Shown piece by piece: positions 46,964 through 61,239 of a stretch of 64,000 nt of DNA. Every line of letters starts with the position of its first letter. Position 1 is the stretch's first letter. The DNA is from an uncultured Gammaproteobacteria bacterium. Lineage in GTDB: Bacteria; Patescibacteriota; Microgenomatia; Levybacterales; GWA1-39-11. The notes under the pieces were generated by a model that searched no databases, was not told where the DNA came from, and worked only from the letters and a program-made list of their open reading frames with translations. The DNA is taken from NCBI GenBank assembly GCA_964406795.1, contig CAYOTA010000001.1, positions 5,383 through 69,382 on the forward strand, in the 5' to 3' direction. The translations under genes were made by a program, and so were the position numbers.

Positions 46964-47035
46964 GGCCCCATCGTCCAGCGGTTAGGACACCAGATTCTCA
47001 TTCTGGTAACCGGGATTCGATTTCCCGTGGGGTCA
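46964..47035 (+). tRNA. tRNA-Glu (anticodon CUC).
   Basis: Manual cloverleaf fold. Acceptor stem GGCCCCA/TGGGGTC with one G-U pair. D-arm GTCC-AGCGGTTA-GGAC. Anticodon stem CCAGA/TCTGG with loop TTCTCAT (U33, CTC, A37). Variable loop TAAC. T-arm CGGGA-TTCGATT-TCCCG. Discriminator A. 72 nt, no encoded CCA. Confidence 0.8.
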
Positions 47036-47210
47036 CATATCTTATAGTATTCCTACCAGACCTGTTGGGTATATTCGATTAGGTTGATAAGGCTTGCTAA
47101 ATTAAATCAAAGTCATTCGAAAATCGTTTCAAGAGCCTGTAATAGTAATATTTACCCCTCAAAAAAGGCTATTAAGCCTACGAGAAAAACACCTGAGTTA
47201 GGATTTGCGG

Positions 47211-48542
47211 TTATTTTTCAATTATTATCTCTCTTTGAGATAGAATGAATTTAGTTTTGATAAAAGATAATACTTCCAGTCGTTCTTCCGCTGTTCCAAT
47301 CTGTAAGATATGGAGGAGATAGTTTTTCATCATTTCATTCTTGTCATTTCCACTTTCCGGAATCCTATTAAATTCAGCTAAGTATCCGTCAATAAATTCC
47401 TGATGAAGTACTTGAGTTTTGAGTCTATGATAGCGTTCTATATCTTCTTGGATTTTCCTTGTGATTCCGGAGGAATTAAATTTAATAACATTTATCTTTG
47501 CGATGAGTTGTTTGATGAGATCTGCTTCCGTAATGTATGGCTCGTCACATTCAAAGTCACGAGATCTTCCACAATGATAGTATATATGTTTTACAATCCT
47601 TCCATTTAAGAGTTTTCTGTATTTCTCCTCAGCTGTAATCCCTCCCCCACATTTTCCGCATCTAAAGATCTTCTTGAATGGAAACAGTTTATTCTTATAC
47701 CCCTTATCTGGTTGTATTTGAAGATGTAGTTGGGCTTTATCAAATAATTCTTTTGTAATGAGTGCTTTATGTTTTCCTTTGTACCAAGTACCACTTCCGA
47801 TTGGAAACTCAAACTCACCATAGTAGAATGGGTTTTTGAGAGTTGCATAGACTTTACTTAAAGCAAGTCTTTTGCCAGTTCTTGATTCAAAACCAATCCT
47901 ATCAAGCCACATCTTTATTGTTCTGCCTGATTGTCCTTGGTTTGCCATTTTGTCAAATATCTGTCTTACAAAGTTTTCTCGTTCAGGGTCGACAACTATT
48001 AACTCCGTTGTTGCGGGATCTCCACTTTGATTTAGATATCCAACTGGAGCAATAGAAGGACGCCAACCCATCAGACACTTTGCTCGCATACCTCTTTGAA
48101 CATTTAAACCTTTATTGTCATTTTCAAGTTTTGCTTGGGAACATAAAATCATCAATAGGAATTTTTCATTTGGATTATTAGAGAAGCTCTGAGAGTAGGT
48201 TTGAATTTTTACTAGCTTTCCCTGATCCATAAGGTCAACTACTGATCCCAAGTCTCCAGCATTTCTTGAAAGTCTGTCCGGTGCCCACGTAAGAATCGCA
48301 TTAAATTTCTTCTGTCTTACTTCTTGGAGAAGTTCCATAAATACAGGACGAGTGCCGGAGGACTTTGCAGAGTGACTTTCTTTTTTGACTTCTTTAATCT
48401 TTAGTTCATCTCGCTTAGCAAGTGTCATCATCTCATCAATCTGAGAATCAATTGACATAGTCTGTCGCTCATCCGATTCGCTTGATTTGCGGGCATAAAG
48501 GCAGTATTCGAGTGATATCTCTGGCTTTGTGTTGTAATCCAT
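47211..48542 (-). mobile_element. Large serine recombinase (resolvase/invertase-type catalytic domain, recombinase domain and zinc ribbon), putative integrase of the adjacent mobile element.
   Basis: Catalytic motif 'CLYARKSSESDERQTMSIDSQ' (Y-R-S...Q of the serine recombinase active site). 'VFMELLQEVRQKKFNAILTWAPDRLSRN'. Cys-rich zinc ribbon 'FRCGKCGG...YYHCGRSRDFEC'. The start was moved from the track ATG (48659) to the internal ATG at 48540-48542 (MDYNTKPEISLEY...); the track's 39-aa leader is Cys/Trp-rich and atypical. The 3' end lies 175 nt from the tRNA-Glu 3' end. Confidence 0.8.
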
Positions 48543-48609
48543 TTCAGGGTAGAAGGTACCGCAGAAAGACCACGAAGTCCAGTAGGAAAATGGCTTAAAT
48601 GCTTTAACT

Positions 48610-48810
48610 TTATACCTGCTTTTTCTCTTTTCTATCCTTCCACCACACAAAACCTGCAACGACTAATAAGACAATACCAAACAAACTATGCGCCAAATGA
48701 TTAACGCCAAGTCCAATTGCCTCGTGATTTAGAGGTAAGGGATATCTGTGATCGAGTAAGAAATAAAGGCCTGCAATAATTAAAATTATAATGGTAAAAT
48801 GCTTCATCAT
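48610..48810 (-). CDS. Small membrane protein (66 aa), hypothetical.
   Basis: 'MMKHFTIIILIIAGLYFLLDHRY...IVLLVVAGFVWW' gives two hydrophobic helices. Located between the recombinase and the HxlR gene. Coding status uncertain. Confidence 0.3.
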   Translation of the reverse strand: MMKHFTIIILIIAGLYFLLDHRYPLPLNHEAIGLGVNHLAHSLFGIVLLVVAGFVWWKDRKEKKQV

Positions 48811-48817
48811 CTCACCT

Positions 48818-49150
48818 CTAATCTTTTTTTAGAAATTTATCCGCAAAGACTCGAATTTCGGCAAGTATAGGCATTATCCCATTTCCTTTTTCGGTCAGAG
48901 AGTATACGACAGATAATTTATCCACTGTTTCTTCTTGTCTTTTAATAATTCCTTGTTCTTCAAGTTTTTTAAGCCTGTTTGAGAGCGTGGTGGGATTTAC
49001 CTGAGGAAGTTCACGTTCAAGTTGTGCAAATCTTTTTTCTCCACCATCAATTGCTTGGATTATTGCAAGTGTCCAGAAATCTCCAAGCATCTTTAGTTCT
49101 TCGTTTGAACATTTTTCTTCTTTATGAATGTATTTCTTTGTCGTTGACAT
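48818..49150 (-). CDS. HxlR-family winged-helix transcriptional regulator.
   Basis: 'CSNEELKMLGDFWTLAIIQAIDGGEKRFAQLERELPQVNPTTLSNRLKKLEEQGIIKRQ' is the canonical HxlR/YodB-type HTH. 110 aa. Confidence 0.8.
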   Translation of the reverse strand: MSTTKKYIHKEEKCSNEELKMLGDFWTLAIIQAIDGGEKRFAQLERELPQVNPTTLSNRLKKLEEQGIIKRQEETVDKLSVVYSLTEKGNGIMPILAEIRVFADKFLKKD

Positions 49151-49162
49151 ACTTTAAAAATT

Positions 49163-49217
49163 GTAGTACTATAGATTTTATAGCACTATAGAATCTATAG
49201 TCTATTGTACTATAATC
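49163..49217. promoter_or_regulatory. Divergent promoter / operator region between the HxlR gene and the NmrA-like gene, with repeated TACTATAG half-sites.
   Basis: Read directly from the sequence. 'tagtactatag' 49164-49174, 'tagcactatag' 49181-49191, inverted 'tctatagtcta' 49193-49203 and 'tgtactataa' 49205-49214 lie within an 89-nt intergenic gap. Confidence 0.45.
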
Positions 49218-49239
49218 TAACCTGAAAAGAAAATTTACT

Positions 49240-49878
49240 ATGAAAATTACAGTTTTTGGAGCAACCGGAAAAACAGGCAAAGAAGTTGTTAAGCAAGCAC
49301 TTGAACTTGGATATGAGGTCAAAGCATTTGTTAGAAACCCCGAGAAAATGGATATTGCCAATGAAAAACTTACGTTAGTTAAAGGAGATGTTACAAATTC
49401 CGAAAATGTTGATCAGGCAGTTGAAGGAAGCGATGGAGTTGTAGTCGCTCTTGGTGCTTCTCCTGATATGCAAGCAGATGTCGTAATGGAAAAAGGCACA
49501 CAAAATATTATGAATGCTATGAAAAAGCATAACGTTAAGAGAATTATTGTTCAAAGCTCTTACGCCATGAGCGGTTCTCCCGAGGGAATAGCGTTTATGA
49601 AGAAAATGGGAATGGGAGAAGAACAAATTGCGATGATGAAGCCTGTCCTTGATGATAAATCAAAACAGGGAGATGCGGTAGTTAATAGTGGGCTTGAATA
49701 TACAATTGTCAGGCCGTTGATGTTAAATGATGAAGGTAAAACAGGAGAATATCGGGTAGGAGAAAATCTTGACGTTAAAGTAGGGGACGCTATTTCCCGC
49801 GCGGATGTAGCTGATTTTATGTTGAAAGATTTAACTGAAAATAAATTTGCAGGAAAGACCGTAACACTCTCTTACTGA
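49240..49878 (+). CDS. NAD(P)H-binding NmrA-like / atypical SDR protein.
   Basis: 'MKITVFGATGKTGKEVVKQALELGYEVKAFVRNPEK' Rossmann N-terminus. 212 aa. Confidence 0.75.
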   Translation: MKITVFGATGKTGKEVVKQALELGYEVKAFVRNPEKMDIANEKLTLVKGDVTNSENVDQAVEGSDGVVVALGASPDMQADVVMEKGTQNIMNAMKKHNVKRIIVQSSYAMSGSPEGIAFMKKMGMGEEQIAMMKPVLDDKSKQGDAVVNSGLEYTIVRPLMLNDEGKTGEYRVGENLDVKVGDAISRADVADFMLKDLTENKFAGKTVTLSY

Positions 49879-49893
49879 GAAAAATTTCCAAAT

Positions 49894-50502
49894 ATGACAT
49901 GGGACACTTTGGCAGATGATGCCGCAATTGAAAAAACCAAAAAAGCTCTTGAAGCAAATGGTATAAAAGTCATTATTGCTGAAAGTGGAGAAAAAGCAAA
50001 GATAGAAGTTTTAAAACTTATCCCCAAGAATGCTGAGGTAATGACTGCGACCTCAACGAGTGCTGACCAGATAGGATTATCAAAAACGCTAGATGAGTCC
50101 GGTGACTATGACTCCACTAGAAAAAAGATTATGGCATTGCCTCAATCTGAAATGCGTACACAGGCCCGGCGTATTAACGCAGCAGTTGATTATGTAGTAG
50201 GAAGCGTACATGCCCTGACAGAGGATGGACACGCAATCATTGCCTCAAACTCCGGCAGCCAGCTTGCAGCATATGTATTTTCCGCAGCACATGTTATTTG
50301 GGTGGTAGGGGCTCAGAAAATTGTCAAGAATGACGAAAAAGGCATAAAGCGCATCAGTGAGTATACTCTTCCTCTTGAGAATCAACGTATGCAACAAACG
50401 TATGGAATGGATAGCAATATCAGCAAGCTGCTTATTGTTAATAAAGAAGTAATGCCGGAAAGAATCACTGTTATTTTGGTAAAAGAAAAACTGGGATTCT
50501 AA
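49894..50502 (+). CDS. LUD-domain protein (LutC/YkgG-like).
   Basis: About 200 aa. 'AIEKTKKALEANGIKVIIAESGEKAKIEVLKLIP' and 'AAVDYVVGSVHALTEDGHAII' resemble the lactate-utilisation LUD fold. Recognition from memory, moderate. Confidence 0.5.
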   Translation: MTWDTLADDAAIEKTKKALEANGIKVIIAESGEKAKIEVLKLIPKNAEVMTATSTSADQIGLSKTLDESGDYDSTRKKIMALPQSEMRTQARRINAAVDYVVGSVHALTEDGHAIIASNSGSQLAAYVFSAAHVIWVVGAQKIVKNDEKGIKRISEYTLPLENQRMQQTYGMDSNISKLLIVNKEVMPERITVILVKEKLGF

Positions 50503-50505
50503 GTT

Positions 50506-51117
50506 ATGAAAATTGTCATCTTTGGCGCAACGGGTCCTACCGGACAACAGTTAGTAAAACAGGCCTTACAGAAAGGCCATACTGTTACAGTGCTTGCAAG
50601 AACTCCTGGAAAAATAACTGCTAAGGATAAAAATCTGATTGTTATAAAAGGAAATGCGCTTGTGTATGAAGATGTTGAAAAAGCGGTTAAAGGACAAGAC
50701 GCTGTTCTAAGTGCAATCGGAGCCAAACCTCCAAGCCGCGAAAAGGTTGTCGGTCCTGCCGTAAAGAATATTATAAAAGCCATGAACAACCACAAAGTTA
50801 ACAGATTGATTGTAGAATCAGCATTTTTTATGGATGAGGAAGTTAGAAAAGGAATATTTATCAAATTACTGAATGCAACTTTTATGAAAGGCCTGTATGA
50901 AGATAAGAAAGAACAGAATAAAATACTTCAAGAAAGTAGTGTTGATTGGACAGAAGTACGCCCTACGATGCTCACCAATGGACAGAAAACTAAATATAAA
51001 ATAGATGTTAAACCGGGTATGTTTTCTAAAATTTCCAGGGCAAATGTTGCCGACTTTATGTTAAACCAAATTAGCGATACTACTTTTGTAAAAAAAGCGG
51101 TAATAATAACCGAGTAA
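50506..51117 (+). CDS. NAD(P)H-binding NmrA-like / atypical SDR protein (second copy, diverged).
   Basis: 'MKIVIFGATGPTGQQLVKQALQKGHTVTVLARTPGK'. The C-terminal 'RANVADFMLNQ' parallels 'RADVADFMLKD' in 49240... Confidence 0.75.
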   Translation: MKIVIFGATGPTGQQLVKQALQKGHTVTVLARTPGKITAKDKNLIVIKGNALVYEDVEKAVKGQDAVLSAIGAKPPSREKVVGPAVKNIIKAMNNHKVNRLIVESAFFMDEEVRKGIFIKLLNATFMKGLYEDKKEQNKILQESSVDWTEVRPTMLTNGQKTKYKIDVKPGMFSKISRANVADFMLNQISDTTFVKKAVIITE

Positions 51118-51120
51118 CCA

Positions 51121-51507
51121 ATGGCTACACAAGAATACATACCGGGAATTTGTAATATTGGACCAGCAGAAATTGCGAGAAGAAAACGTGCGGGTTATGC
51201 TGGGCTTATTGTAAGCATTGTTCTTTTTACAGTTCTTATAGGCATTAAGGCTCATCCGGTGTGGCGCCTTTTGCTGGTATTCCCCGTTATGAGTGCGGCA
51301 AGCGGATTTCTACAGGCATATTTTCATTTTTGCGCAGGCTTCGGATTTAAAGGAGTTTATAATGTGGTAAAACCCGCAGGGAAAACCGAAACTATACAAC
51401 AAAAAGAATTCCGTACTAAAGACAGACAAAAAGCTCTTCAAATTACAGGGCTTTCAATACTTATTGGTTTGATTTTTGCCGGAGTTTTTTATTACCTTCC
51501 CCTTTAG
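51121..51507 (+). CDS. Membrane protein (128 aa), hypothetical.
   Basis: Three or four predicted TM helices ('GLIVSIVLFTVLIGI', 'LLLVFPVMSAASGFL', 'LSILIGLIFAGVFYYL'). No recognised domain. Confidence 0.45.
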   Translation: MATQEYIPGICNIGPAEIARRKRAGYAGLIVSIVLFTVLIGIKAHPVWRLLLVFPVMSAASGFLQAYFHFCAGFGFKGVYNVVKPAGKTETIQQKEFRTKDRQKALQITGLSILIGLIFAGVFYYLPL

Positions 51508-51531
51508 ATCAAATTCAATTCGGTAGTATCC

Positions 51532-51927
51532 CTAAGACTCTTCTTTTCGTTTCTCTTTTTCGTTTTTTTCCATTTTTTCACTGTTACTTCCAAAGAACTG
51601 TTTCATGGGATTTTGGTTATTGGTATGATGCGCAACAAGATTCACAAACCCTAAAATAACTCCTATTCCAACAAATAAGTAAATGATGGTAAAGACTTTT
51701 CCTAGATCAGTCTTGGGAGCAAGATCACCAAACCCAACAGTTGTCAAGGTAGTTGTGCTGAAGTAGAGCGAATCGAGCAGATTCCATTTCTCTACCTGGT
51801 GATAAAAAATTGTTCCTGAAAGCAAAATAATAAGAACAAAGAAAAACAAACCTTTGAATTCAGGGTCTTTAAAGCCCGCAAGTAGTGCCCGTATAAAACG
51901 GTATGCTGTAATAAAAAAGCTAAACAT
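51532..51927 (-). CDS. Minimal two-TM potassium channel (pore-only, about 131 aa).
   Basis: Selectivity-filter signature 'TTLTTVGFGDLAP' preceded by a pore helix and flanked by TM1 'GLFFFVLIILLSGTIFY' and TM2 'VFTIIYLFVGIGVILGFVNLV'. The start was set at the internal ATG at 51925-51927, which removes a 95-nt overlap with the MacB-like gene in the track ORF. Confidence 0.7.
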   Translation of the reverse strand: MFSFFITAYRFIRALLAGFKDPEFKGLFFFVLIILLSGTIFYHQVEKWNLLDSLYFSTTTLTTVGFGDLAPKTDLGKVFTIIYLFVGIGVILGFVNLVAHHTNNQNPMKQFFGSNSEKMEKNEKEKRKEES

Positions 51928-51931
51928 AATT

Positions 51932-53152
51932 TTATTCGTAACGCAAAGCTTCAATTGGCGAGAGTTTGGCGGCACGTTGGGCCGGATAGAGTCCAAAGCC
52001 AATGCCAACACCTGCTGAAACTCCAACTGCCAATAAAATTGAAAACGGCTGAACTATAAATGGAATATTTACTACCTGTGTGATAATAAATGCCAAAACA
52101 ATTCCAAGAACGATTCCAATACTTCCACCAACGAGTGTTAAAACGGCTGATTCTATTAAAAATTGAGTTAAAATATCCCGTCTTTTCGCGCCGATTGCCT
52201 TAAGGAGTCCAATCTCTTTTGTACGCTCGGTAACGGTTACCAGCATAATATTCATAATGCCGATACCGCCAACTAATAGAGAAATTCCGGCGATACCTGC
52301 AAGAAGCGTTGTGAGAAGACCGGTAATTGTATCAAGTGTTGCCAGAGCGTCTTTTGAACTTCGGAGAGAAAAATCAGGATCATCTCCGTCAGCTATTTTA
52401 TGGCGTTCTATAAGAAGAGTATTTATATCTTCCATAGTCTGCTCAATCAGCTTTGGGTCTTCTGCCTGTATCATAAGAGTCTGGACATGATTTTGTCCAA
52501 GCAATATTTTCATAGCAGTTGTATAGGGAATATACACTGATTTATCCGGATTTGAGAGTGGTGATCCGCCTTTTGGAGCCGCAACGCCAATAATTCGAAA
52601 GGAACGGTTGTCAAGTTTGATACTTTTCCCAACCGGTTCTGATCCCTCACCAAACAGGTCTACTGCAATATCATGTCCAATTACTGCCACTCTTGATAAT
52701 CCCTGCTCATGATCTTCTGTCAGAAACTCACCCTGTGCTATATCGATAGTTTGTATTACTTGATAAGAAGCCGCAACGCCGTGGACTGTAGTTGCAACAT
52801 CGACTCCTCCTGCCACAGCTTTTGTCGGCTTACTAACAAGCGGTGAAAGCATTGCAACATTTACTACTCTACCGCTCGATAAAATTGCCTCTCCATCTTC
52901 TGGTGTTAATGATTTTATTGAAGCAATACCTGCCCCTCCACCTTGAGAAATTGAACCTGGTATAACTACCACCAAATTTGTGCCGAATGAGGATATTTGA
53001 TTGGTGATTGTTTGTGTTGCTCCGGCGCCCAGAGAAACTATAAGAATAACCGAGGCAATACCAATAATAATCCCAAGCATGGTTAAAAGCGTCCGCAAGA
53101 CATTACTTTTAAGTGCTGTTAGGGCTGATGCTATTAGTTCACGATACGACAT
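51932..53152 (-). CDS. ABC transporter permease, MacB/FtsX family.
   Basis: 406 aa. N-terminal TM plus a large periplasmic (MacB_PCD-like) domain, followed by a C-terminal FtsX four-helix bundle 'GIGIMNIMLVTVTERTKEIGLLKAIGAKRRDIL'. Confidence 0.8.
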   Translation of the reverse strand: MSYRELIASALTALKSNVLRTLLTMLGIIIGIASVILIVSLGAGATQTITNQISSFGTNLVVVIPGSISQGGGAGIASIKSLTPEDGEAILSSGRVVNVAMLSPLVSKPTKAVAGGVDVATTVHGVAASYQVIQTIDIAQGEFLTEDHEQGLSRVAVIGHDIAVDLFGEGSEPVGKSIKLDNRSFRIIGVAAPKGGSPLSNPDKSVYIPYTTAMKILLGQNHVQTLMIQAEDPKLIEQTMEDINTLLIERHKIADGDDPDFSLRSSKDALATLDTITGLLTTLLAGIAGISLLVGGIGIMNIMLVTVTERTKEIGLLKAIGAKRRDILTQFLIESAVLTLVGGSIGIVLGIVLAFIITQVVNIPFIVQPFSILLAVGVSAGVGIGFGLYPAQRAAKLSPIEALRYE

Positions 53153-53858
53153 ATTGTTTGTTTTCCTTGTCCGAAAGAATAAGACCGTCTTTTAAACGGA
53201 TAATTCTTTTGGCAAAAGCAGCAATATCATCTTCATGGGTAATAAGCACAATGGTATGTCCATCCCTATTCAATTTTTGAAAAAAATCCATAATTTCATG
53301 AGCGGTCTTACTATCCAAATTCCCCGTCGGCTCATCAGCCAGAATGATCGCCGGATTCATAACTAGTGCTCGCGCAATTGCCACTCTTTGAATCTGTCCT
53401 CCAGAAATATGATTGGAAAGATTTTGTGCTTTTTCCTCAAGATGAACAAGCGAAAGCGCATCCATTACCCGTTTTGCTCTTTCTTCAGGTTTAATGCCTG
53501 CATACATCATAGGCCGTTCGACATTTTTAAAAACTGTCGTTCTCGGTAAGAGATTAAATGACTGAAAGACAAATCCGATTTCTTTATTTCTTATCTCTGC
53601 CAGTTCATCTTCTGAAAATTTACCGATTTCTTTCCCTTTCAAGAGAAAACTTCCTGAAGTAGGAGTATCAAGGGCCCCGACAATGTGCATAGTTGTAGAT
53701 TTCCCGCTTCCTGAGGGACCCATGATAGCCACAAAATCTCCCTCGTAAATATCAAGAGAAATTCCTTTTAAGGCTTGATATTCATTAATACCAGTAATGT
53801 AGGTCTTTGTAATCTCTTTGAGAGAGATAATAGGAGCATGGCCGTTTGTTTGTTTCAT
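53139..53858 (-). CDS. ABC transporter ATP-binding protein (MacB-type NBD).
   Basis: Walker A 'GPSGSGKST', ABC signature 'LSGGQIQRVAIARAL', Walker B 'ILADEPTGNLD' and H-loop 'IVLITHE'. Confidence 0.85.
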   Translation of the reverse strand: MKQTNGHAPIISLKEITKTYITGINEYQALKGISLDIYEGDFVAIMGPSGSGKSTTMHIVGALDTPTSGSFLLKGKEIGKFSEDELAEIRNKEIGFVFQSFNLLPRTTVFKNVERPMMYAGIKPEERAKRVMDALSLVHLEEKAQNLSNHISGGQIQRVAIARALVMNPAIILADEPTGNLDSKTAHEIMDFFQKLNRDGHTIVLITHEDDIAAFAKRIIRLKDGLILSDKENKQYVVS

Positions 53859-53864
53859 ATTTAA

Positions 53865-55193
53865 TCATTGTCCGCCGCCAAGAATTGTTGATCCTGAACG
53901 CTTGACCTGTCCATTCTGAAGCGCAGTAATAACCTCCACCCCCTCTGCCACACCTTCCAAAACTTCTGTCTTGTCAATTCCTCTAACCCCGATTTTTATG
54001 GGTATGAACTTTGGCTCTTTGGATTGAACATCATAAATTTGTACCGCCTTTCCACCTTTATATGGCTTTATCGCGCTATTTGGTACAGTTAAAACATTTT
54101 TAGCTTGATCGACCTCAATATCAACATTTGCCGTCATTGCGGGTTTAATTCTGTTATCAAAATTGAGAATTGTGACATACACATTATAAGTAACGACACC
54201 CTGATTATTTGTGCCTATTTCATCTACATTTGAAATCCGTCCATCAAAGGTCTTATCGGCAAATGCATCGAGGAAAATTTGAGCTCTCTGTCCGCTTCGC
54301 ACTTTCGGAACATCCACTTCATTTAATGACAACTTCACGGTAAAACTTTCCTGACCAGAGATAATACTTAGCACAGGGGAGGGTGGTGGCGCAGCCGCAA
54401 GTGCTAGTGAAGATACTCCAGCGTTACCTGCACCTGCGGTTGCTTTGTCTCCTACGCTGATTGAGAGATTTGCAACGGTACCAGTAGCAGTTGCTTTTAC
54501 AACTGCGTTTTGTGTTGCCTGGTAGGCAAGCCAGGCAGAATTAACCTGCGCTTTTGCTGCATTCACTGAAACATCCGCTTCTTTGTATTTTTGCTCAGCA
54601 GCCGTGAAGTTCTTTTCCGCTTGAACATGTGCTGCATCCAAAGATTGTTCTTCTAAATCTTCATAATCGTCTTTATTATCATCCTTCACTCTTTTGGCTT
54701 CTCTTGCATCAAGAAGGGTTTTTTGAGCAGTCCACATTGTTGCATCAAGTGTCTGCTTGTTCTGTTCGGCAGTCTTTTGCGCACTAAAGGTATTTTGATA
54801 GGCCGCCCATGCTGTAGCTTTTTCTTGCTCGGTTGCGGTGCTTTTTACTTTAAAAAGCTCTGTACCTACTTCTACAGGATCGCCGTTTTGCACATATATT
54901 TCCTCGACAATACCTGTGGCTGAAGACGTAATATCAACTTTGCCTCCAGTTGATACATTTCCTGTTTCTGAAACGATCTCAGTAATCGTATCGCGGGATA
55001 CGGACTCCGTTATAAATTCTGGTTGGGCATTTGAGCTTTGAATGTTTCTAAATATAAAGAAACCAACAAGTAAAACAGCAATAACAACAAAGATTTTATT
55101 CCGTAACCTTGTCTCACGAAACCAATTAATTGGCTTCCGAGCTGGCTTAAAAATTTGTTTTAATTTATTCGTAGAAAAGCTGTGCTTATCCAT
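53865..55193 (-). CDS. HlyD/MacA-type periplasmic adaptor (membrane fusion protein).
   Basis: N-terminal TM anchor. Long Ala/Gln/Lys-rich coiled-coil (residues about 120-230). C-terminal beta-barrel 'GTVTYNVYVTILNFDNRIKPAMTANVDIEV'. 442 aa. Confidence 0.75.
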   Translation of the reverse strand: MDKHSFSTNKLKQIFKPARKPINWFRETRLRNKIFVVIAVLLVGFFIFRNIQSSNAQPEFITESVSRDTITEIVSETGNVSTGGKVDITSSATGIVEEIYVQNGDPVEVGTELFKVKSTATEQEKATAWAAYQNTFSAQKTAEQNKQTLDATMWTAQKTLLDAREAKRVKDDNKDDYEDLEEQSLDAAHVQAEKNFTAAEQKYKEADVSVNAAKAQVNSAWLAYQATQNAVVKATATGTVANLSISVGDKATAGAGNAGVSSLALAAAPPPSPVLSIISGQESFTVKLSLNEVDVPKVRSGQRAQIFLDAFADKTFDGRISNVDEIGTNNQGVVTYNVYVTILNFDNRIKPAMTANVDIEVDQAKNVLTVPNSAIKPYKGGKAVQIYDVQSKEPKFIPIKIGVRGIDKTEVLEGVAEGVEVITALQNGQVKRSGSTILGGGQ

Positions 55194-55662
55194 TTTGTTC
55201 TTTCTTTAGTGTTTCAATAAGATTGGTATGAATTCTAATAAGCTCCCTGAGATCTTTTGCCGGAATTTTTGATACAAACCTTTTCATTTTTTCCATAATA
55301 TTTTTCTTCAAAATGATAAATTCTTCTTCTCCTTTTGGAGTAATGATGAGCCGGACAATTCTCCTGTCTTCTTGATCATTTATTCTATCTACTAGCCCTG
55401 CTTTTACTAAACGCTCAATGAGCTGTGTTGCGGAGGATTTAGAAAGTTGCATGAATTTAGCAAGCTCTCCAACAGTCCCATTTGGTTGATCTTTGAGAAA
55501 TTGAAGAGCGGAGAATTGAAGTATTGTCGCAATTCTTTCCTCATGAGATTCCTGAGAATAGTGCGAGATAAACTTCCCGAGCTGTATCATTGTGTTGAAT
55601 AGCTGTTCAAAATCAGATGTAGTTGTCATAACTATAAGTTTAACTGTTAAATAGTTTAACAC
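55186..55662 (-). CDS. MarR-family transcriptional regulator (likely regulator of the downstream ABC exporter).
   Basis: 'LSKSSATQLIERLVKAGLVDRINDQEDRRIVRLIITPKGEE' winged-helix HTH. The track start is a GTG at 55662. The ATG at 55627-55629 (MTTTSDFEQLF...) is more plausible because it places the palindrome at 55645-55661 upstream of the gene. Confidence 0.75.
   Translation of the reverse strand: MLNYLTVKLIVMTTTSDFEQLFNTMIQLGKFISHYSQESHEERIATILQFSALQFLKDQPNGTVGELAKFMQLSKSSATQLIERLVKAGLVDRINDQEDRRIVRLIITPKGEEEFIILKKNIMEKMKRFVSKIPAKDLRELIRIHTNLIETLKKEQNG
55645..55661. promoter_or_regulatory. Perfect 7-3-7 palindrome TGTTAAA-TAG-TTTAACA, probable MarR operator.
   Basis: Read directly. About 16 nt upstream of the MarR ATG at 55629. 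A related copy 'ataaatagttaaacacat' lies at 56045-56062, upstream of the ATG at 56029 of the next gene. Confidence 0.5.
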
Positions 55663-55702
55663 ATAAACTATACGCTGTCAAGTTCTATTGAAAATTCATT
55701 TT

Positions 55703-56062
55703 TTATTTATTCTTTTTCCAAATCTCATCTATGATGGGTAGTCCCGTAATTGAATCCATCGAAAACTCAATGCCTATTTCATAACCATTGTATTCTCTAA
55801 CGTATGCTTCATCACTTGTTTTTTGACCATGATTATAAACATCAATTGCATCCGCTTCAGATAATCCCCATTCCTCAGCATCTGTATGAAAATTCTTGGT
55901 GAATAAGTATTTTTGGCTTCTATAGAGAGTGTGTCGGGCGGACGTGTCATCGAGTTGTTTAATAGTGTGTTTTATTGCAGTCTTGAATTCGTCTGTAATC
56001 ACCTTTCCTAGATGCTCAAAGAAGTCCATATAATTAATCCTGCCATAAATAGTTAAACACAT
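55703..56062 (-). CDS. Hypothetical protein (108-119 aa).
   Basis: No recognised domain. The track start (56062) lies inside the conserved motif shared with the MarR upstream region. The ATG at 56029 (MDFFEHLGK...) has a GGCAGGA Shine-Dalgarno-like sequence 9 nt upstream and is preferred. Confidence 0.4.
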   Translation of the reverse strand: MCLTIYGRINYMDFFEHLGKVITDEFKTAIKHTIKQLDDTSARHTLYRSQKYLFTKNFHTDAEEWGLSEADAIDVYNHGQKTSDEAYVREYNGYEIGIEFSMDSITGLPIIDEIWKKNK

Positions 56063-56086
56063 AAATTAAATCATGTCAAAATTGCT

Positions 56087-56213
56087 AAAAAAGCCCCTCC
56101 ATAAAGAAGGGGCTTTGAAAATAACGGATCCGCTATTTTAATGGAGCTGAGTTTTCACTCCTTTTGCGGTGAGTGTCCCTCACAAAAAATGCCCGATGTT
56201 ATTCAGGCATTTT
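56087..56213 (-). terminator. Two tandem Rho-independent terminator-like hairpins downstream of 56234..56788.
   Basis: Hairpin 1: + strand aaaatgcc(56186-56193) / ggcatttt(56206-56213). Hairpin 2: + strand agcccct(56092-56098) / aggggct(56108-56114), followed on the transcribed minus strand by a T6 run (56087-56092). Confidence 0.55.
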
Positions 56214-56233
56214 CTGTCTTTAGATAGTAATAA

Positions 56234-56788
56234 TTACATTCCAAGATCGACAAGGATGTTTTTATTGCTATAGAAACTCGCATTGTATTGAAGTTTTAGA
56301 CCTATAGCTGTTGTTGGTACTTCAAATCCAACCCAATCTGTTTTCTTAGCATTGGCAATCAATGCTCCATCCAGACCTAAAGATCCTGCGTTTTGCATTC
56401 TCTTTCCTGTTACAGCAACTTGGTACTGATTATTGTCACTATCTATGACAAACATCTGACCCAAGGTCGTTATGTACTCTTGATTTGATCCTGTGTTCTC
56501 AATTGTCATGTTTACATCAATCCAATGATTAACCTCTGATGGTTTTGTAAATTGACCAGCAGTTGAAGTTTCTACCTTATTTACAGTCAGGATAATATCT
56601 CCCATTTGTACCTTGTCTCCAACTTTATACGTTTCTTGAGTTGGTTGATTATTTTCAGTTGTAGTTTTTGTAGCAGTAGTATCAGAATTTGATCCTACCT
56701 TTTTACTACCACTTCCCATACTTCCAATAACACCAATCACTATAATGACTAATAAAGCGATTCCTCCCCATTTAAGTAATTTCTTCAT
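56234..56788 (-). CDS. DUF4352-like secreted / N-terminally anchored protein.
   Basis: Signal/anchor 'MKKLLKWGGIALLVIIVIGVIGSMGSGS'. A Thr/Ser-rich linker. Then a beta-rich domain 'YKVGDKVQMGDIILTVNKVETS...NQYQVAVTG'. The pattern is common in mobile elements of monoderm bacteria (DUF4352 assignment from memory). Confidence 0.5.
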   Translation of the reverse strand: MKKLLKWGGIALLVIIVIGVIGSMGSGSKKVGSNSDTTATKTTTENNQPTQETYKVGDKVQMGDIILTVNKVETSTAGQFTKPSEVNHWIDVNMTIENTGSNQEYITTLGQMFVIDSDNNQYQVAVTGKRMQNAGSLGLDGALIANAKKTDWVGFEVPTTAIGLKLQYNASFYSNKNILVDLGM

Positions 56789-56923
56789 ATTCCACCTCCT
56801 TTCTTATGGCTATTGATGACATATTACTTATATTTAAGCACAAAGTCAAGGCTAAATAAAGCGTCAGACGCTATACAATTATTCTTCCATTTTAACTACC
56901 TTTATATAGTGAGAACTTACAAA

Positions 56924-57118
56924 GTGAATGAAAAATTAGGTAAGAGGATTAGGAGAGCTAGAAAAGATAGGAAAATTACCCAAGAGGAGCTAGCTGATAG
57001 GGTGGATCTCCACTACACAACCATAAGTAGGATTGAAAGAGGTATAAGTAATCCTCCCGTTCAAACTGTCAGCAAGATTGCGAAAGCGTTAAAAGTTTCT
57101 TTATCAGACCTCTTCTAG
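56924..57118 (+). CDS. XRE-family helix-turn-helix transcriptional regulator (about 64 aa).
   Basis: 'LGKRIRRARKDRKITQEELADRVDLHYTTISRIERGISNPPVQTVSKIAKALKVSLSDLF' is the canonical Cro/C1-type HTH. The track ORF starts at 56813 with a 37-aa non-HTH leader. An in-frame GTG at 56924 gives the typical length; the start is uncertain. Confidence 0.7.
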   Translation: MNEKLGKRIRRARKDRKITQEELADRVDLHYTTISRIERGISNPPVQTVSKIAKALKVSLSDLF

Positions 57119-57129
57119 CTTTTTCTAAC

Positions 57130-58653
57130 TTAGAATTTCATATCCATAGTAAAAAATGGAGTTGACATATCAACCCTCTCTCCCGCAAAATCTACGTAAA
57201 TAGGGCCACTCGGTTCGGAATTTTCCCAGTTAGTTTTGTAATATGGCCTGTCGCTTTCGATTGATTTTATTATCAATGTGGAAAATCCATCTGCTAAATC
57301 CTCGTGCTTTTCAATACCAAAATTAGTAATCTGTGAAATTAGTTCTGCTGCTCCATAGCGTGGGAATAATACTTTTCCACTTTTAATGTATGGTGTTGTA
57401 ATACTTAACCTTGCGCTCTTGTCTAGACCATTCACGCTTACCGGCTCTGCGAATAATTTCTCAACAATTAGTTGCTGAACGACTGCTAATTGGTAGGCAA
57501 CATTCTCGACAAAGATAATTGGCTGTCTTTTAAACTCTAATTGCATACGAGTGCTCATTTTTTTAATTTCATCGATTGTTTGTGGGTAAGTTAATCTCTT
57601 GTTAACAATATAAGGCAAGATGTATATCTGAAGGGTTTCACCATAGCCAACAATGTAGGCCGGGACTAGCGTTGTAAAATCTGCTGTAGTTTTCTGAGAA
57701 ATCGCCAGATCCACTCCAACAGCGAGCAACCGGGGTGGATCTTCTCTGATATCCGGAAGACTATCGTAAAACTGAATCCATTCTTTTTTTACAACCCTAT
57801 CCTCGTCAGCGATAATCTTTAGAAGATACTCGCGAAACCAAGCTGATTCATTTGGAACTTTACTTTTTAATTGTTCTATCTCAACAAGGGAAGGGAATTT
57901 TGACTTCCAGAGAATATTATTTTTATCATCAAGTAATGGATACTCGCGATATTCCCCATCCATCGTACCGTTAATCAAGCTCTCTTTGACACGCATCATT
58001 AGGGAATCTTCATGCAACATATTCCCAACGCAAATTAGTTTTGTACCACTATCTCCTATAGGAATTACCTCTCCTGTCAGCCAATTCCAAATTTTATCCC
58101 GTCCTTCCTTTGTTTTGACAGTTTCCAGATCCTCCACGTCATCAAGAACTGTTAGGTCAGGACGGTACTGCCTATGCCTTAGTCCTCGGATACTCTCACT
58201 TGCTGAAATTGCAGTTATGCGACTCCCGTACTGGGAAATAACCAAAGAGTTTGCTCTCCACTCATCAGCCACTTCACTAAATGGTCCAAAATCTTTAATG
58301 AGTAATTCATTTGATTCAAATTCCTGTTTTATGTTTGCAAGGATTTGTCTAGACAGTCCTTGAGTTTGACTTACTAACAAAATGTACTTTTTTGAAAGCA
58401 TTCCAATCATTGCCCAAATGGGATAAGAAAGTGTCGCAATGGTTGATTTTGCGGATCCACGGAAGGCTACAATTCCGACCGTCATTACGTCCTGGTCTTC
58501 AAGGAGAGCAAACATTTCTTTGTGAAAATCTGCTGTTGGGTAAAGGATGTAATGACTGAAATAGGTATGGAAAAACCAAAAAAAGCTTTTCTTAACTAGG
58601 GCTTTCCGAAAAGTTTGATCGTTTAGTATTCGATTAAATATTTCATCATTCAT
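57130..58653 (-). CDS. Phage terminase large subunit (TerL).
   Basis: ATPase Walker A 'VAFRGSAKSTIA' and Walker B 'LTVLDDVED'. C-terminal RNase-H-like nuclease beginning 'LLAVGVDLAISQKTTADFTTLV'. 507 aa. Confidence 0.7.
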   Translation of the reverse strand: MNDEIFNRILNDQTFRKALVKKSFFWFFHTYFSHYILYPTADFHKEMFALLEDQDVMTVGIVAFRGSAKSTIATLSYPIWAMIGMLSKKYILLVSQTQGLSRQILANIKQEFESNELLIKDFGPFSEVADEWRANSLVISQYGSRITAISASESIRGLRHRQYRPDLTVLDDVEDLETVKTKEGRDKIWNWLTGEVIPIGDSGTKLICVGNMLHEDSLMMRVKESLINGTMDGEYREYPLLDDKNNILWKSKFPSLVEIEQLKSKVPNESAWFREYLLKIIADEDRVVKKEWIQFYDSLPDIREDPPRLLAVGVDLAISQKTTADFTTLVPAYIVGYGETLQIYILPYIVNKRLTYPQTIDEIKKMSTRMQLEFKRQPIIFVENVAYQLAVVQQLIVEKLFAEPVSVNGLDKSARLSITTPYIKSGKVLFPRYGAAELISQITNFGIEKHEDLADGFSTLIIKSIESDRPYYKTNWENSEPSGPIYVDFAGERVDMSTPFFTMDMKF

Positions 58654-59077
58654 TTATTTTCTCCGTATCCATAACTTTTGCAGGAATTAGTGATGCCATT
58701 TCTAAAGCTTTTCTTATAAGAGCTTCCTGTTCTGGCGTTAGATCTTCATCAAGTTGCTTTGCGATTGTCATAACCTCAACTTTTGTAGTGTACTTAGGGT
58801 GGTGGTGCTTAAGCCAAAAAGTAATTGCAGTAAGGTTTTTATCCCTTATTGCACTCATAAGTTGTGACTCTGCCATGTCGTTTACTAATAGCGAACCGTC
58901 AGATATTGCTTGGTCTGTGTTTTTCGCAAATTCGATATCGTCTTTTAGCCACCTGTAATAAGTAGCTCGACTGACTCCCGATTTATCACATGCAATTTGC
59001 ACGATGGGGGTTTTTCGTAAATGCTCGATAATTTTACTTTTTTCGCCTGATTGTCTTTTCTGAATTGTTTTATCCAT
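58646..59077 (-). CDS. Putative terminase small subunit (HTH DNA-binding protein).
   Basis: 143 aa. 'IVQIACDKSGVSRATYYRWLKDDIEFAKN' HTH. It lies immediately upstream of terL with an 8-nt overlap, the usual terS-terL arrangement. Confidence 0.5.
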   Translation of the reverse strand: MDKTIQKRQSGEKSKIIEHLRKTPIVQIACDKSGVSRATYYRWLKDDIEFAKNTDQAISDGSLLVNDMAESQLMSAIRDKNLTAITFWLKHHHPKYTTKVEVMTIAKQLDEDLTPEQEALIRKALEMASLIPAKVMDTEKINE

Positions 59078-60404
59078 GAATTTTTTCTGCTTTCTGTCCT
59101 GTTAACTTTTCCCACCTTTTTATAATTACTTCGGAATAAACAGGCGATTTTTCCATCCCATAACATCGGCGATTCATTTTTGTCGAGGCGATTAATGTAC
59201 TGCCGCTTCCGGAGAAGGGTTCTACCACTAAATTGCCACGTTTTGTCAGCATTTTTATGTACGGGATTAATATCTCAATAGGTTTGGTTCCAAAAATTAC
59301 CCCTTGCCCGGAATGTTTCTCGTCGGAAGCTACGTACTCGATAAAATCGGTTGGTTGGTTTTTCTTACCCCTTTGGTACCCTTCCCAATGTGGCTTGCCT
59401 GCAATGGCGTAGAGTGCTGTTTCATACTCTTCTTGCAGTCCATCTACCTCTTCCTCTAGATTAAAGGGAATATCTTTATCCGGGGACGCGCCAACCATTG
59501 CAATATCATGCTTTGAAAAGAATTTGTATTTGGCTGAAAAACCTTGATGCCTATTGGGTAAATGCCAAACAATCATATTTTTTACTTTCCAATGTTTCTC
59601 AAGTTCTCCCCAAATGACACGAAGGTTTTTCCAATTTTCGTAGACAATTATGCTGAAATGTTCGTTTTGTACTTTTGAGATGTTAGCCATCCATTTTTCT
59701 GTAAAGTCAGGTGGTAAAACGTCTGTTTCTAAATAGCGTCTGTCTCTTTTTGCACCAAAACCAGTTACCGCATTTCCATGTTTTTTCTTTCCATTTAAGT
59801 AATCCAAAATGTAAGGGGGATCAGTAAAACACATATCGGCTTTCTCGCCATTCATTAATTTCAACATGTCTTCTTCTATGGTCGAGTCTCCACACATCAA
59901 CCGACTATCGCCCAAAGAATAGACATCACCTTTTTGGGTATTAATCTTTTGAATATTCAATTTCTGAAGTTCTTTTTCAAGATCAAATTCCTCCGGAGAG
60001 ATATCGAGCTTAAAAATATCATCAAGTTCGTCTGTTGAGAAACCAACATCTGAAAGAAATGACTCGTCAAACTTGGCAAGCAAATCCCAATCAAACTCTC
60101 CAGTATTTTTATTCAACCGCAAATTCAGCTCTTTTTCTTTCTCCAGATCGGGAATATCAACATATACTACAGGTACCGTCTTATATCCCAGTTGCTTGGC
60201 CACTTCCCATCGGAAATGACCACCTATGATGGTGTTTTTACGATCTGGCGAAGAGTTGGCTATAACCGGATCTACAAGTCCAAAGCGTAAGATGCTTTGC
60301 TTAAGTTGCTCAGTAGCCTCTTCATCATGTTTACGAGGGTTATAGTCCGCTGGTATTAAATCGTTAGTTGGAACATCAACTGTCTGGATGGATATGCTTT
60401 GCAT
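59070..60404 (-). CDS. ParB-like nuclease domain fused to a DNA N6-adenine / N4-cytosine methyltransferase (beta-class amino-MTase).
   Basis: N-terminal ParB/Srx box 'IIGGHFRWEVAKQLGYKTVPVVYVD'. Catalytic motif IV 'CFTDPPYILDY' followed by AdoMet motif I 'VVEPFSGSGSTLIAS'. The order IV then I marks beta-class N6A/N4C MTases. Confidence 0.75.
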   Translation of the reverse strand: MQSISIQTVDVPTNDLIPADYNPRKHDEEATEQLKQSILRFGLVDPVIANSSPDRKNTIIGGHFRWEVAKQLGYKTVPVVYVDIPDLEKEKELNLRLNKNTGEFDWDLLAKFDESFLSDVGFSTDELDDIFKLDISPEEFDLEKELQKLNIQKINTQKGDVYSLGDSRLMCGDSTIEEDMLKLMNGEKADMCFTDPPYILDYLNGKKKHGNAVTGFGAKRDRRYLETDVLPPDFTEKWMANISKVQNEHFSIIVYENWKNLRVIWGELEKHWKVKNMIVWHLPNRHQGFSAKYKFFSKHDIAMVGASPDKDIPFNLEEEVDGLQEEYETALYAIAGKPHWEGYQRGKKNQPTDFIEYVASDEKHSGQGVIFGTKPIEILIPYIKMLTKRGNLVVEPFSGSGSTLIASTKMNRRCYGMEKSPVYSEVIIKRWEKLTGQKAEKIHG

Positions 60405-60465
60405 AGCCTATTTATATACGAGCTTGATAAGAAGGTCATGGAAGGTTTAGAAATTCCTTAAGCTC

Positions 60466-61167: not shown

Positions 61168-61239
61168 ACAAACTACTTCTATTGTTTAGTTGAACTAAAA
61201 TATGTAAAATCATGTTAACAAATAGTAAATTCTAAAACA

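Follow-up and report, generated by a model that had tools for sequence, protein, structure and literature searches.

Tyrosine integrases classically insert at tRNA genes. Serine integrases, for their part, swap strands across a core of 2 bp without leaving a long repeat behind, and they act unidirectionally without the need for host factors. The SCCmec-type islands, which are mobilized by the large serine recombinases (LSRs) CcrAB, are cargo islands located at the 3' end of rlmH/orfX, with a mosaic cargo and a target gene that stays functional. Only tyrosine integrases have been known to target tDNAs, and serine integrases were stated not to do so (PMC4383910). An LSR takes the place of the tyrosine recombinase in 27 of 937 tycheposons and PICI-like elements in Prochlorococcus (bioRxiv 10.1101/2020.12.28.424599), and serine recombinases are used by some groups of satellites, such as PLE and VEIME module 3 (PMC9618062).

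In the window, by which we mean the whole 64-kb stretch of DNA analyzed, an LSR gene is located next to a tRNA-Glu gene. The protein resembles the LSRs of phages (SPbeta SprA, TP901-1, phiC31, Bxb1 and A118/LI) in the combination of a Resolvase domain, a Recombinase domain and a zinc ribbon with the serine in a YxRxS motif, in its end-to-end alignment to SprA and in the position of its gene at the end of the element beside the putative att site. It differs from them in that a tRNA 3' end would be the target in place of a protein-coding gene, in that the hosts are Patescibacteria and in its identity of only about 25–27% to any deposited phage integrase. The tRNA and tmRNA islands of tyrosine integrases (Islander/TIGER, P4-like) share with the present island the anchor at a tRNA 3' end, an integrase gene adjoining the tRNA, cargo and defense genes, a shift in composition and a clade-specific choice of tRNA with target switching. 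Unlike in the Islander/TIGER islands, the recombinase here is of an unrelated family and no displaced tRNA 3' fragment was found as a distal direct repeat, a difference that a crossover at or after the discriminator would explain.

The present island is also tRNA-linked, integrative and cargo-carrying or satellite-like with terS, as are the tycheposons and PICI-like elements of Prochlorococcus. By their description, the tycheposons are set apart by their phylum and by a hallmark deep-branching tyrosine recombinase and a replication module, neither of which was seen here, whereas the present island has a TerL and a ParB-methylase besides TerS. As in PICI, cfPICI, PLE and the marine VEIMEs, there is an integrase, regulators, one or more terminase subunits and a variable defense cargo, with no full virion set; unlike in these, no helper phage, replication module or capsid-remodeling gene was identified, and packaging is a property that we infer. 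The SCCmec islands are similar in being mosaic cargo islands that are mobilized by LSRs at the 3' end of a translation-related housekeeping gene, which is left functional, but their target is a protein gene and not a tRNA gene, and the present island has a single LSR and a terminase module.

The tRNA-Glu gene and the large serine recombinase

The first-pass annotation had placed the 3' end of an LSR gene about 175 nt downstream of a tRNA-Glu gene, and ARAGORN, Rfam and Pfam agree with this arrangement, the LSR stop codon being situated 174 nt past the end of the tRNA. The tRNA-Glu(CTC) gene (46964–47036, forward strand) is intact and is the sole tRNA gene identified by ARAGORN in the window; Rfam model RF00005 matches 46964–47035 over its full length with 60.4 bits (gathering score 29). 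In an alignment of related loci, the pairs of the T-stem and the acceptor stem co-vary with the host, locus by locus. We interpret the gene as the host target, with the T-arm plus the 3' strand of the acceptor as the putative B arm.

The LSR is encoded on the reverse strand by an ORF at 47211–48659, in which the ATG at 48542 gives a protein of 443 aa (47211–48542), equal in length to its closest homologs. All of its Pfam domains score above gathering, namely Resolvase (PF00239, residues 15–157, 1.8e-20), Recombinase (PF07508, residues 186–274, 5e-12) and Zn_ribbon_recom (PF13408, residues 288–350, 4e-8), and the protein matches PHROG 95 “integrase” (8e-60). An alignment to known large serine integrases had been suggested for this protein; it aligns to SprA of SPbeta over residues 16–375, and the motif Y16-A-R-K-S20 falls on the catalytic region of SprA. 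The resolvase domain with its nucleophilic serine is followed by the Recombinase domain and then the zinc ribbon, as in other members of the LSR family. More than 8000 homologs were found, with the top matches in MAGs of Patescibacteria.

The 3' untranslated spacer of the LSR gene (47073–47210, reverse strand) contains a terminator-like hairpin at 47166–47179 and sequence blocks that are conserved between subgroups, though no consensus structure indicative of a conserved RNA emerged from the 174 nt between the tRNA and the LSR. No recombination directionality factor was identified. A small HTH_17 gene was considered as the excisionase or directionality factor and rejected as the main reading, as it heads defense operons at varying positions.

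The junction and its recurrence in related loci

In every locus compared, the sequence is specific to the element from the base next to the tRNA onward. The putative P' arm (atatcttatagtattcctaccagacctgttgggtat, 47037–47072, forward strand) contains a register-conserved TTC at 47050–47052 and GACC at 47059–47062, and the arms of LSRs that are 41–98% identical share TTC at +14–16 and GACC(C/T)G at about +22–27 from the tRNA end. A PWM built from 16 arms gave a score of 23.9 at 47037–47072 and no more than 7.6 in the rest of the window. Across different phylum-level lineages, the tRNA to which this same arm is attached varies between Glu-CTC, Glu-TTC and Lys-TTT; unoccupied tRNA-Glu and tRNA-Lys genes have unrelated trailers without the arm motifs. 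One locus (L002) counts against the reading as a tRNA junction in that the same arm is joined to sequence other than a tRNA, with similarity to the window beginning at 47030. It was rejected as an attP form, being situated on a 550-kb contig with other defense genes in the flanks. Another locus (L089) was likewise rejected as an attP form of the present element, as it has an LSR with only 49% identity and, downstream, sequence that does not align. No circular attP form was seen; there were four viral contig fragments, all without tRNA or structural genes.

Judged from where similarity to L002 and the element-specific arms set in, the crossover probably lies at or just past the discriminator/position 74, in a zone at 47034–47040 (...GGGGTCAC/ATATC...). 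The strand exchange would in that case leave the tRNA whole, with no fragment that needs to be duplicated. The first-pass annotation had predicted that the tRNA 3' end would recur as a direct repeat, presumably beyond 64000. No such copy was found elsewhere in the window, either in a pattern search with up to three mismatches or with blastn-short, and there was no match of at least 12 nt to the 3' half of the tRNA. A repeat is not expected of a serine integrase, since LSRs use a 2-bp core and a junction at or after the discriminator spares the tRNA; the lack of a repeat together with the sharp junction is consistent with recombination between attP and attB at such a core. A GGGTC/GACCC dyad that spans the junction was dropped as a crossover marker, since it holds true for Glu targets only.

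As in other tRNA-gene genomic islands, the integrase gene adjoins an intact tRNA and the junction is at the tRNA 3' end, and this arrangement recurs among the related LSRs. A tRNA gene is located within 3 kb downstream of 41 of 59 related LSR genes, all 41 in convergent orientation (binomial p = 9e-13), compared to 5 of 54 in the upstream control (Fisher p = 2e-11); about 30% of the relatives with enough flanking sequence have no tRNA within 3 kb. The spacing between the tRNA and the LSR is the same, 175–180 nt, in fifteen loci, and the identity of the tRNA tracks the LSR clade, being Glu/Lys, Ser or Gln/Trp/Arg. The 3' end of the LSR gene overlaps an antisense tRNA in the most distant clade. 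One genome contains several copies, each at a different tRNA-Ser gene, within the same host tRNA cluster the occupied gene can be Ser(GCT) or Ser(CGA), and the tRNA belongs to a host Lys-Glu tRNA pair in two loci (L005 and L048). Two convergent LSRs are present in some relatives, and a single LSR in the present island.

Gene content and probable mobility of the island

A switch in gene content at the tRNA, proposed from the sequence at first pass, is borne out by the Pfam and PHROG annotation of both sides and by a rise in GC from 0.33–0.35 before the tRNA to 0.37–0.41 after it. The upstream side contains glycosylation genes (PMT_2, GT2, GT87 and YfhO) and a rhodanese gene. Beyond the LSR follows a first cargo block (48610–51507) for a small TM protein, an HxlR regulator, an NAD(P)H-binding oxidoreductase, a LUD-domain protein, a second NAD(P)H-binding protein and a TM protein. 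The second block (51532–55662, reverse strand) encodes a K+ channel, a MacB permease, an ABC ATPase, a HlyD-type adaptor and a MarR regulator; this variable cassette is present in L003 and partial in L002, and an MFS/RND-type cassette stands in its place in the sister genome (L011/L085). After a 119-aa ORF of no known function, a DUF4352 protein and an HTH_3 (Cro/CI-type) regulator (55703–57118) comes the conserved packaging module (57130–60404, reverse strand), which consists of TerL (57130–58653; PHROG 38, 2e-74), a TerS-like protein (58646–59077; TerS PHROGs, about 7e-7) and a ParB_N-N6/N4 DNA methylase (ParB-MTase, 59070–60404; PHROG 498 and Pfam). A conserved gene of no known function, u233 (60466–61167), which is 56% identical to u231 in L085, and a divergent promoter region occupy 60466–61231 on the reverse strand. 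The last segment (61240–63996) is a type IIS-like restriction-modification (R-M) cassette with an Alw26I-type endonuclease (RE_Alw26IDE, 61240–62853, forward strand, 4e-128) and a C5 cytosine methylase (62836–63996, reverse strand, DNA_methylase 2e-58). The endonuclease starts with the first ~10 codons of an HTH_17 “cassette-leader” gene (MKTEGKIPEI, compared to MKTDDKIPEL at the start of a 64-aa HTH_17 gene in L008), and we think that this cassette is probably inside the element, attached on the far side of the island.

The gene order suggests that at least one “cargo bay” is present between TerL and the integrase, which here accommodates a MacAB-type efflux system, MarR and HxlR regulators and oxidoreductases. 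In the relatives, the cargo is variable and mostly related to defense, with Type I R-M systems in the bay and SNF2/PLD, KAP, OLD-like and SIR2 genes flanking the module. The module is located upstream of the LSR in about 25–37 of 80 loci.

The first-pass annotation had further argued that the presence of the same genes downstream of the tRNA in related genomes would speak against an insertion. In three relatives (L001, L003 and L011), this island is indeed found beside the same tRNA, yet such a test would wrongly dismiss the element, because a conservation of the island far above that of the host flanks points to horizontal spread and is not evidence against mobility. At the DNA level, the island is 81–92% identical to that in the sister genome and the host flanks 65–74%. 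The island proteins are 86–98% identical overall (LSR 96%, TerL 98%, ParB-MTase 94%, LUD 91%; packaging module 92–98%; HTH_3 96% in L011), compared to 49–66% for the host-flank proteins. The stretch 46964–50502 is 83% identical to L011, a blastn match to the sister island covers 56720–61231 at 85%, and the collinear similarity between the two hosts, 46964–61231, is broken only by the replaced cargo at ~50.5–56.7 kb and ends at 61231. Other genomes contain unoccupied tRNA-Glu and tRNA-Lys genes or show the alternative occupancy of tRNA-Ser genes mentioned above. No empty tRNA-Glu site was found in close relatives of the present host, and a search of metagenome contigs with an exact degenerate tRNA pattern gave 0 matches.

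The shared core covers 47037–61231 and the island may run beyond 64000. Its far end (attR) was found neither in the window nor in the sister island, leaving one of the two ends in view: over the 32 kb walked from the tRNA (L085 and L090), the sister island still contained genes for defense or of unknown function, with no boundary and no GC step. Partners of the B or P' arm, inverted or direct, did not rise above chance in the window (ungapped scan against shuffles; 16-arm PWM), the best match falling inside the endonuclease coding sequence, or in L088–L091. Many of the related contigs break inside the element. The junction of a mobile element that was proposed at first pass is well supported by comparison, through the tRNA association, the arm and the contrast in identity, and the part of the proposal that invoked a tRNA 3'-end repeat is not supported.

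Alternative explanations and implications

The TerS, TerL and ParB-MTase genes are typical of the late region of phages, and one explanation is that the LSR is the ordinary integrase of a temperate prophage, complete or recently decayed, that has its own terminase and whose head and tail genes lie past 64000 or have diverged beyond recognition. This would fit with the Cro/CI-type HTH_3 regulator and with L089, in which the same module is adjacent to a LexA/CI-like S24 repressor and a collagen/Peptidase_S74 tail-fiber-like ORF follows right after the LSR. Patescibacterial phage proteins are moreover poorly annotated, and in one such phage only ~30% of the genes were annotatable (bioRxiv 10.1101/2024.03.08.584096). 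However, no portal, capsid or tail protein was matched by Pfam or PHROGs among the submitted ORFs of the window and many relatives, some of which are of unknown function. About 40 related loci had no structural genes in the surrounding ±10 kb, and the precomputed Pfam labels for 32 kb of sister-island sequence named none either. TerL is directly followed by cargo or the LSR, not by a portal gene, and the module is flanked by R-M and the other defense genes listed above. A portal, a major capsid and a tail gene contiguous with the terminase, as in a complete temperate prophage, were thus not seen, although divergent ORFs may escape detection, and we consider a prophage unlikely. What was found is the gene set of a PICI-like phage satellite, with an LSR, HTH_3, MarR and HxlR regulators and TerS plus TerL, without a structural set for the virion. 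In the absence of recognizable capsid, portal and tail genes at the module, a satellite-like island is the most likely reading, though such genes could be too divergent or farther away. It is also conceivable that, at a genuine junction, the mobile unit is smaller and consists of the LSR and adjacent cargo, with the ParB-MTase/TerS/TerL module and the R-M genes derived from separate elements in the same tRNA-anchored hotspot. The island is indeed strongly mosaic, as seen in L089, where a ParB-MTase that is at least 90% identical accompanies the 49% identical LSR, and in cassette boundaries ~140–220 nt upstream of the ParB-MTase and at 61231; about half of the loci have no terminase within 10 kb. 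Yet the two hosts are collinear across 46964–61231 save for the replaced cargo, the module points in the same direction as the LSR and lies 0–8 kb from it in ~40% of the loci in many lineages, and no second integrase intervenes between the two in the window, all of which make a smaller unit quite improbable.

Could the region instead be static and vertically inherited, with a domesticated recombinase or an unrelated resolvase or invertase next to a tRNA that has no meaning as a target? The shared gene content at the same tRNA in three relatives, the lack of an identified empty site and the missing second att site would be in line with this. Such stasis is very hard to reconcile with an island identity far above that of the flanks, with the same arm on different tRNAs in different phylum-level lineages, with the convergent, clade-specific tRNAs in 41 of 41 cases, with a complete integrase-type domain set or with multiple copies per genome and the many contigs broken within the element. 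That the tRNA is itself cargo of the element, as phages often carry tRNAs and as its constant position beside the LSR might suggest, is more improbable still. The stems of the tRNA change with the host locus as the adjoining arm stays constant, and that arm is found on Glu-CTC, Glu-TTC or Lys-TTT; the Lys-Glu pair in L005 and L048 and the alternative members occupied in tRNA clusters at the Ser loci are those of the host. Furthermore, the tRNA 3' end is where homology to L002 breaks off, and synteny of the host flank (p255/p387) begins directly beyond the tRNA in L004 and L011.

We therefore favor, with a probability of about 0.8, the interpretation that 47036/47037 is the tRNA-proximal junction of a satellite-like island placed by its own LSR at the 3' end of tRNA-Glu(CTC). 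The junction would be of the attL type (B-O-P'), and the LSR would act right at the 3' terminus of the host tRNA by recognizing the conserved T-arm/acceptor end as the left half of attB. In this reading, the LSR would belong to a Patescibacteria-wide clade in which each member is specific to the 3' end of one tRNA, and the island would most likely spread between these bacteria in borrowed virions as a packaging-competent, phage-satellite-like carrier of defense genes or other cargo. More tentatively, and with some doubt, we suggest that this is a large undescribed LSR clade with specificity for the tRNA 3' (CCA) end that mobilizes a new satellite-like family (ParB-methylase/TerS/TerL), the members of which exchange HTH_17-headed defense cassettes. 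The use of the near-universal T-arm/acceptor as half of attB would then explain the distribution across phylum-level lineages of Patescibacteria.

The pairing of tRNA-Glu and LSR recurs in dozens of ultra-small Patescibacteria genomes, despite reports that LSRs do not use tRNA genes. If such a clade exists, tRNA targeting arose independently in the serine recombinase family, and a clade locked to tRNA 3' ends would represent an independent solution for hitting a conserved and safe target without breaking the gene. Since serine integrases are unidirectional and free of host factors, tRNA-end-specific LSRs could also serve genome engineering, as candidate broad-host-range tools for integration in lineages that are uncultivated or resist genetic manipulation. 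For the Patescibacteria themselves, in which mobile elements are poorly known, such islands would be a major horizontal route for defense, R-M and efflux genes into tiny genomes.

The tRNA-Glu gene and the convergent serine recombinase

The only tRNA gene identified in the window with ARAGORN is tRNA-Glu(CTC) (46964-47036, plus strand), to which the Rfam tRNA model gave a full-length match (60.4 bits). The stop codon of a large serine recombinase (LSR; 47211-48542, minus strand) lies 174 nt downstream. Read from the ATG at 48542, the LSR is 443 amino acids long, as are its closest homologs, and contains Resolvase, Recombinase and Zn_ribbon_recom domains, each above the Pfam gathering threshold. 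It also matched PHROG 95 "integrase" (8e-60), and the SPbeta integrase SprA could be aligned with residues 16-375, including the catalytic YxRxS motif with S20. The pairing described in the first-pass annotation was thus borne out, as was the switch in gene content at the tRNA, where the GC content rises from 0.33-0.35 to 0.37-0.41. Upstream are a rhodanese and a 45-kb glycosylation supercluster (PMT_2, GT2, GT87, YfhO paralogs), and downstream follow, in order, HxlR, two NAD(P)H-binding proteins and a LUD protein, a K+ channel, MacB/ABC/HlyD efflux genes with MarR, DUF4352 and an HTH_3 regulator, TerL, a TerS-like protein and a ParB_N-DNA methylase, the conserved gene u233 of unknown function (60466-61167, minus strand), and an Alw26I-type restriction enzyme with a C5 methylase.

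The supercluster (404-46496, minus strand) is a nearly unbroken, same-strand run of about 45 kb and an unusually big fraction of a small genome. Its paralog families, with members 25-38% identical, include 5 + 4 + 2 PMT_2-like proteins of ~550 amino acids, five GT2 and three YfhO-like proteins of ~750-800 amino acids. The K+-channel ORF as listed (51532-52026, TTG start) overlaps the start of MacB (51932-53152) by ~95 nt; since homology to the corresponding sister-genome locus begins at residue 34, the true start is probably further downstream.

Target specificity and the probable attachment arm

Thousands of LSR homologs were identified, the best in MAGs of the Patescibacteria (Levyi-, Beckwith-, Gottesman-, Shapiro-, Roizman-, Woese- and Pacebacteria) and remoter ones in Parcubacteria, Saccharibacteria, Peribacteria and Gracilibacteria. 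We scanned 80 genomic loci around such homologs for tRNAs. For 59 LSR genes the sequence covered 3 kb downstream; a tRNA was present there in 41, and the nearest one was on the opposite strand in all 41 (binomial p ~9e-13), so that the 3' ends of tRNA and LSR point towards each other. On the upstream side, only 5 of 54 genes had any tRNA within 3 kb (Fisher p ~2e-11). A spacing of 175-180 nt recurs in 15 loci. Furthermore, the identity of the tRNA tracks LSR similarity: the cluster of the window's LSR is located at tRNA-Glu (CTC or TTC) apart from one tRNA-Lys, a second cluster at tRNA-Ser, and others at Gln, Trp or Arg, while the ORFs of the most divergent LSR group run into tRNA-Asn, Ala or Trp, overlapping its 3' end in antisense. 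Judging from these sequences, the LSRs behave as a family of target-specific integrases.

The interval between tRNA and LSR was aligned for 12 loci, and the trailers of all tRNAs in the loci were compared. Both the T-stem and the acceptor stem vary in step with the host tRNA, whereas from the first base past the discriminator/C74 the sequence is specific to the element subgroup. Directly after the tRNA, atatcttatagtattcctaccagacc is common to the window, its sister genome (L011) and two further loci (L001, L003), and a[at][ag]tatcg[tc]aaggttcagcgcgacccg to seven others (L005-L010, L047), at Glu-CTC, Glu-TTC or Lys-TTT alike. Counted from the end of the tRNA, TTC at +14-16 and GACC(C/T)G at about +22-27 are retained in the arms of LSRs that are only 41-98% identical; such a fixed register is what an att half-site should show. 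Where tRNA-Glu and tRNA-Lys genes of other loci are unoccupied, the sequence that trails them is unrelated, and often a terminator. [quoted passage not shown]

Several variations on this arrangement were observed. Outside the ~36-nt arm, the LSR 3' spacer (47073-47210 and homologous spacers) contains blocks that are invariant between subgroups (TTCTCGTGG, TTACAGGNTCT, TTTCGA and TTAGCAAG), possibly accessory protein sites; no conserved RNA structure was found in the aligned spacers. At L002 (11400-21329), an LSR 94% identical to that of the window has the same element-side (P') arm, but joined to GATTCGAACAGTGTATCTCTCGGGTCAC, which resembles a tRNA 3' end where neither ARAGORN nor Rfam identified a tRNA. 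Beyond it lies another defence cluster (PIF1-like helicase, 878-aa ATPase, DUF262/HNH, methylase), and the junction might reflect use of a secondary site, decay of a former tRNA or two islands in tandem. In tRNA-Ser loci (L022, L026-L030, L032, L034-L036, L053, L061, L064, L080), the trailers are of a second conserved type (...ttccatgtaat[at]t[at]a..ggt..gcta); the LSR is 0.4-8 kb away, indicating extra genes inserted between the integrase and the presumed att arm. Five loci (L049, L050, L051, L058, L084; for example L051 10001-12590) carry convergent LSR pairs only ~74 bp apart, ~47% identical to the window's LSR, beside tRNA-Ser and an arm of yet another, third type (attgacaacttggtagatacatgacc...); like CcrAB, the two may form a two-recombinase system.

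Mobility and the far end

A collinear island is located at the same tRNA in the sister genome (L011, extended as L085 and L090). Its DNA identity to the window is 81-92% over 46964-50502, 51304-51935 and 56720-61231, against 65-74% for the host genes across the tRNA; likewise, the protein identities are 96% for LSR, 98% for TerL, 94% for ParB-methylase and 91% for LUD, and 66% and 49% for two host glycosyltransferases. In several cases, one genome has two or three copies, each at a different tRNA, and the occupied member of the conserved host cluster [tRNA-Ser(GCT)][tRNA-Arg, tRNA-Ser(CGA)] differs between genomes. Together with the convergent genes and the element-specific arm, the contrast in identity supports the core of the first-pass annotation, a mobile-element junction at tRNA-Glu. 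Multi-copy examples are L026 and L034 on contig CAZIZX010000003.1, and L025 and L053 in one MAG; two or three such elements represent a high mobile-element load for genomes of ~1 Mb.

Collinearity with the sister island ends upstream of u233, within the divergent promoter region (position 61231), which gives a shared core of 47037-61231 (14.2 kb). Past this point, the window has the Alw26I-type restriction-modification pair, and the sister island and L008 a defence operon whose first gene is a 64-aa HTH_17 gene (leader regions: window 61168-61270, L008 1111-1360, L085 8988-9240). The window retains only the promoter and ~10 codons (MKTEGKIPEI) of this gene, fused to the restriction enzyme. In ~12 loci, the HTH_17 gene stands at the head of defence operons, at varying positions, and these operons differ (HsdR/HsdM, SNF2-PLD; L008, L085 and ~10 other loci). 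The varying positions make it look like a handle of exchangeable cassettes rather than the element end, and the leader looks like a conserved recombination handle for defence-cassette swapping.

The island possibly continues beyond 64000. Partners of the P' arm or of the tRNA-side (B) arm were found neither in the window nor in 32 kb of the sister island or loci L088-L091, and many contigs end within the element. An exact search of metagenome contigs with a degenerate tRNA pattern revealed no empty tRNA-Glu site. The first-pass annotation had expected a copy of the tRNA 3' end at the far end and proposed to reject the insertion if none existed, or if related genomes had the same genes there and no empty site; we consider these the wrong criteria for a serine integrase.

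A probable satellite-like island and its relatives

Clustering of all ORFs from the 80 loci identified only four gene families that travel together: LSR (78 loci), TerS-like (37), ParB-methylase (36) and TerL (25). They are always co-oriented, in the order ParB-methylase, TerS, TerL, 0-8 kb of variable cargo, LSR and tRNA. Across loci, the cargo bay and the region beyond ParB-methylase contain Type I and IIG restriction-modification systems, SNF2+PLD proteins, KAP NTPases, OLD-like ATPases, helicase-nucleases and SIR2 proteins. The nearest deposited phages are only ~25-27% identical in TerL or LSR.

The main rival is a full prophage, with structural genes that are unrecognisable or located further away. 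It is favoured by L089 (GCA_021733565.1, JAKFZD010001643.1, 4288-16454), where the same module has a LexA/CI-like S24 repressor upstream and, directly past the LSR, a 1723-aa tail-fibre-like ORF with an excisionase-like HTH, collagen repeats and Peptidase_S74. No tRNA was found there, and L089 may be a phage or an attP-like context of a related element; its ParB-methylase is at least 90% identical to that of the window and its LSR only 49%, indicating that modules are shuffled. However, searches of the window, of 32 kb of the sister island and of ORFs from many of the ~40 module-bearing loci detected no member of a portal, capsid or tail family. The recurrent packaging module and defence cargo, in loci where no structural genes were detected, lead us to read the element as a putatively packaging-competent, satellite-like cargo/defence island.

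According to PMC4383910, only tyrosine integrases were known to use tDNAs as targets, and later surveys indicate that tyrosine integrases prefer RNA genes (PMC13626063). The nearest precedent that we found is the tycheposons, in which an LSR occurs in some members (27 of 937 Prochlorococcus tycheposons and cryptic integrative elements) and terS in the PICI-like ones (bioRxiv 10.1101/2020.12.28.424599); marine satellites and PLEs also have serine recombinases (PMC9618062). A non-exhaustive literature search yielded no description of an LSR/tRNA element family in Patescibacteria, of which LSR-mining studies may include members. Genomic islands and satellites at tRNAs are already known, and the locus is, on the comparative evidence, one of these; what is new here is the putative driver, a clade of serine integrases specific to tRNA ends.
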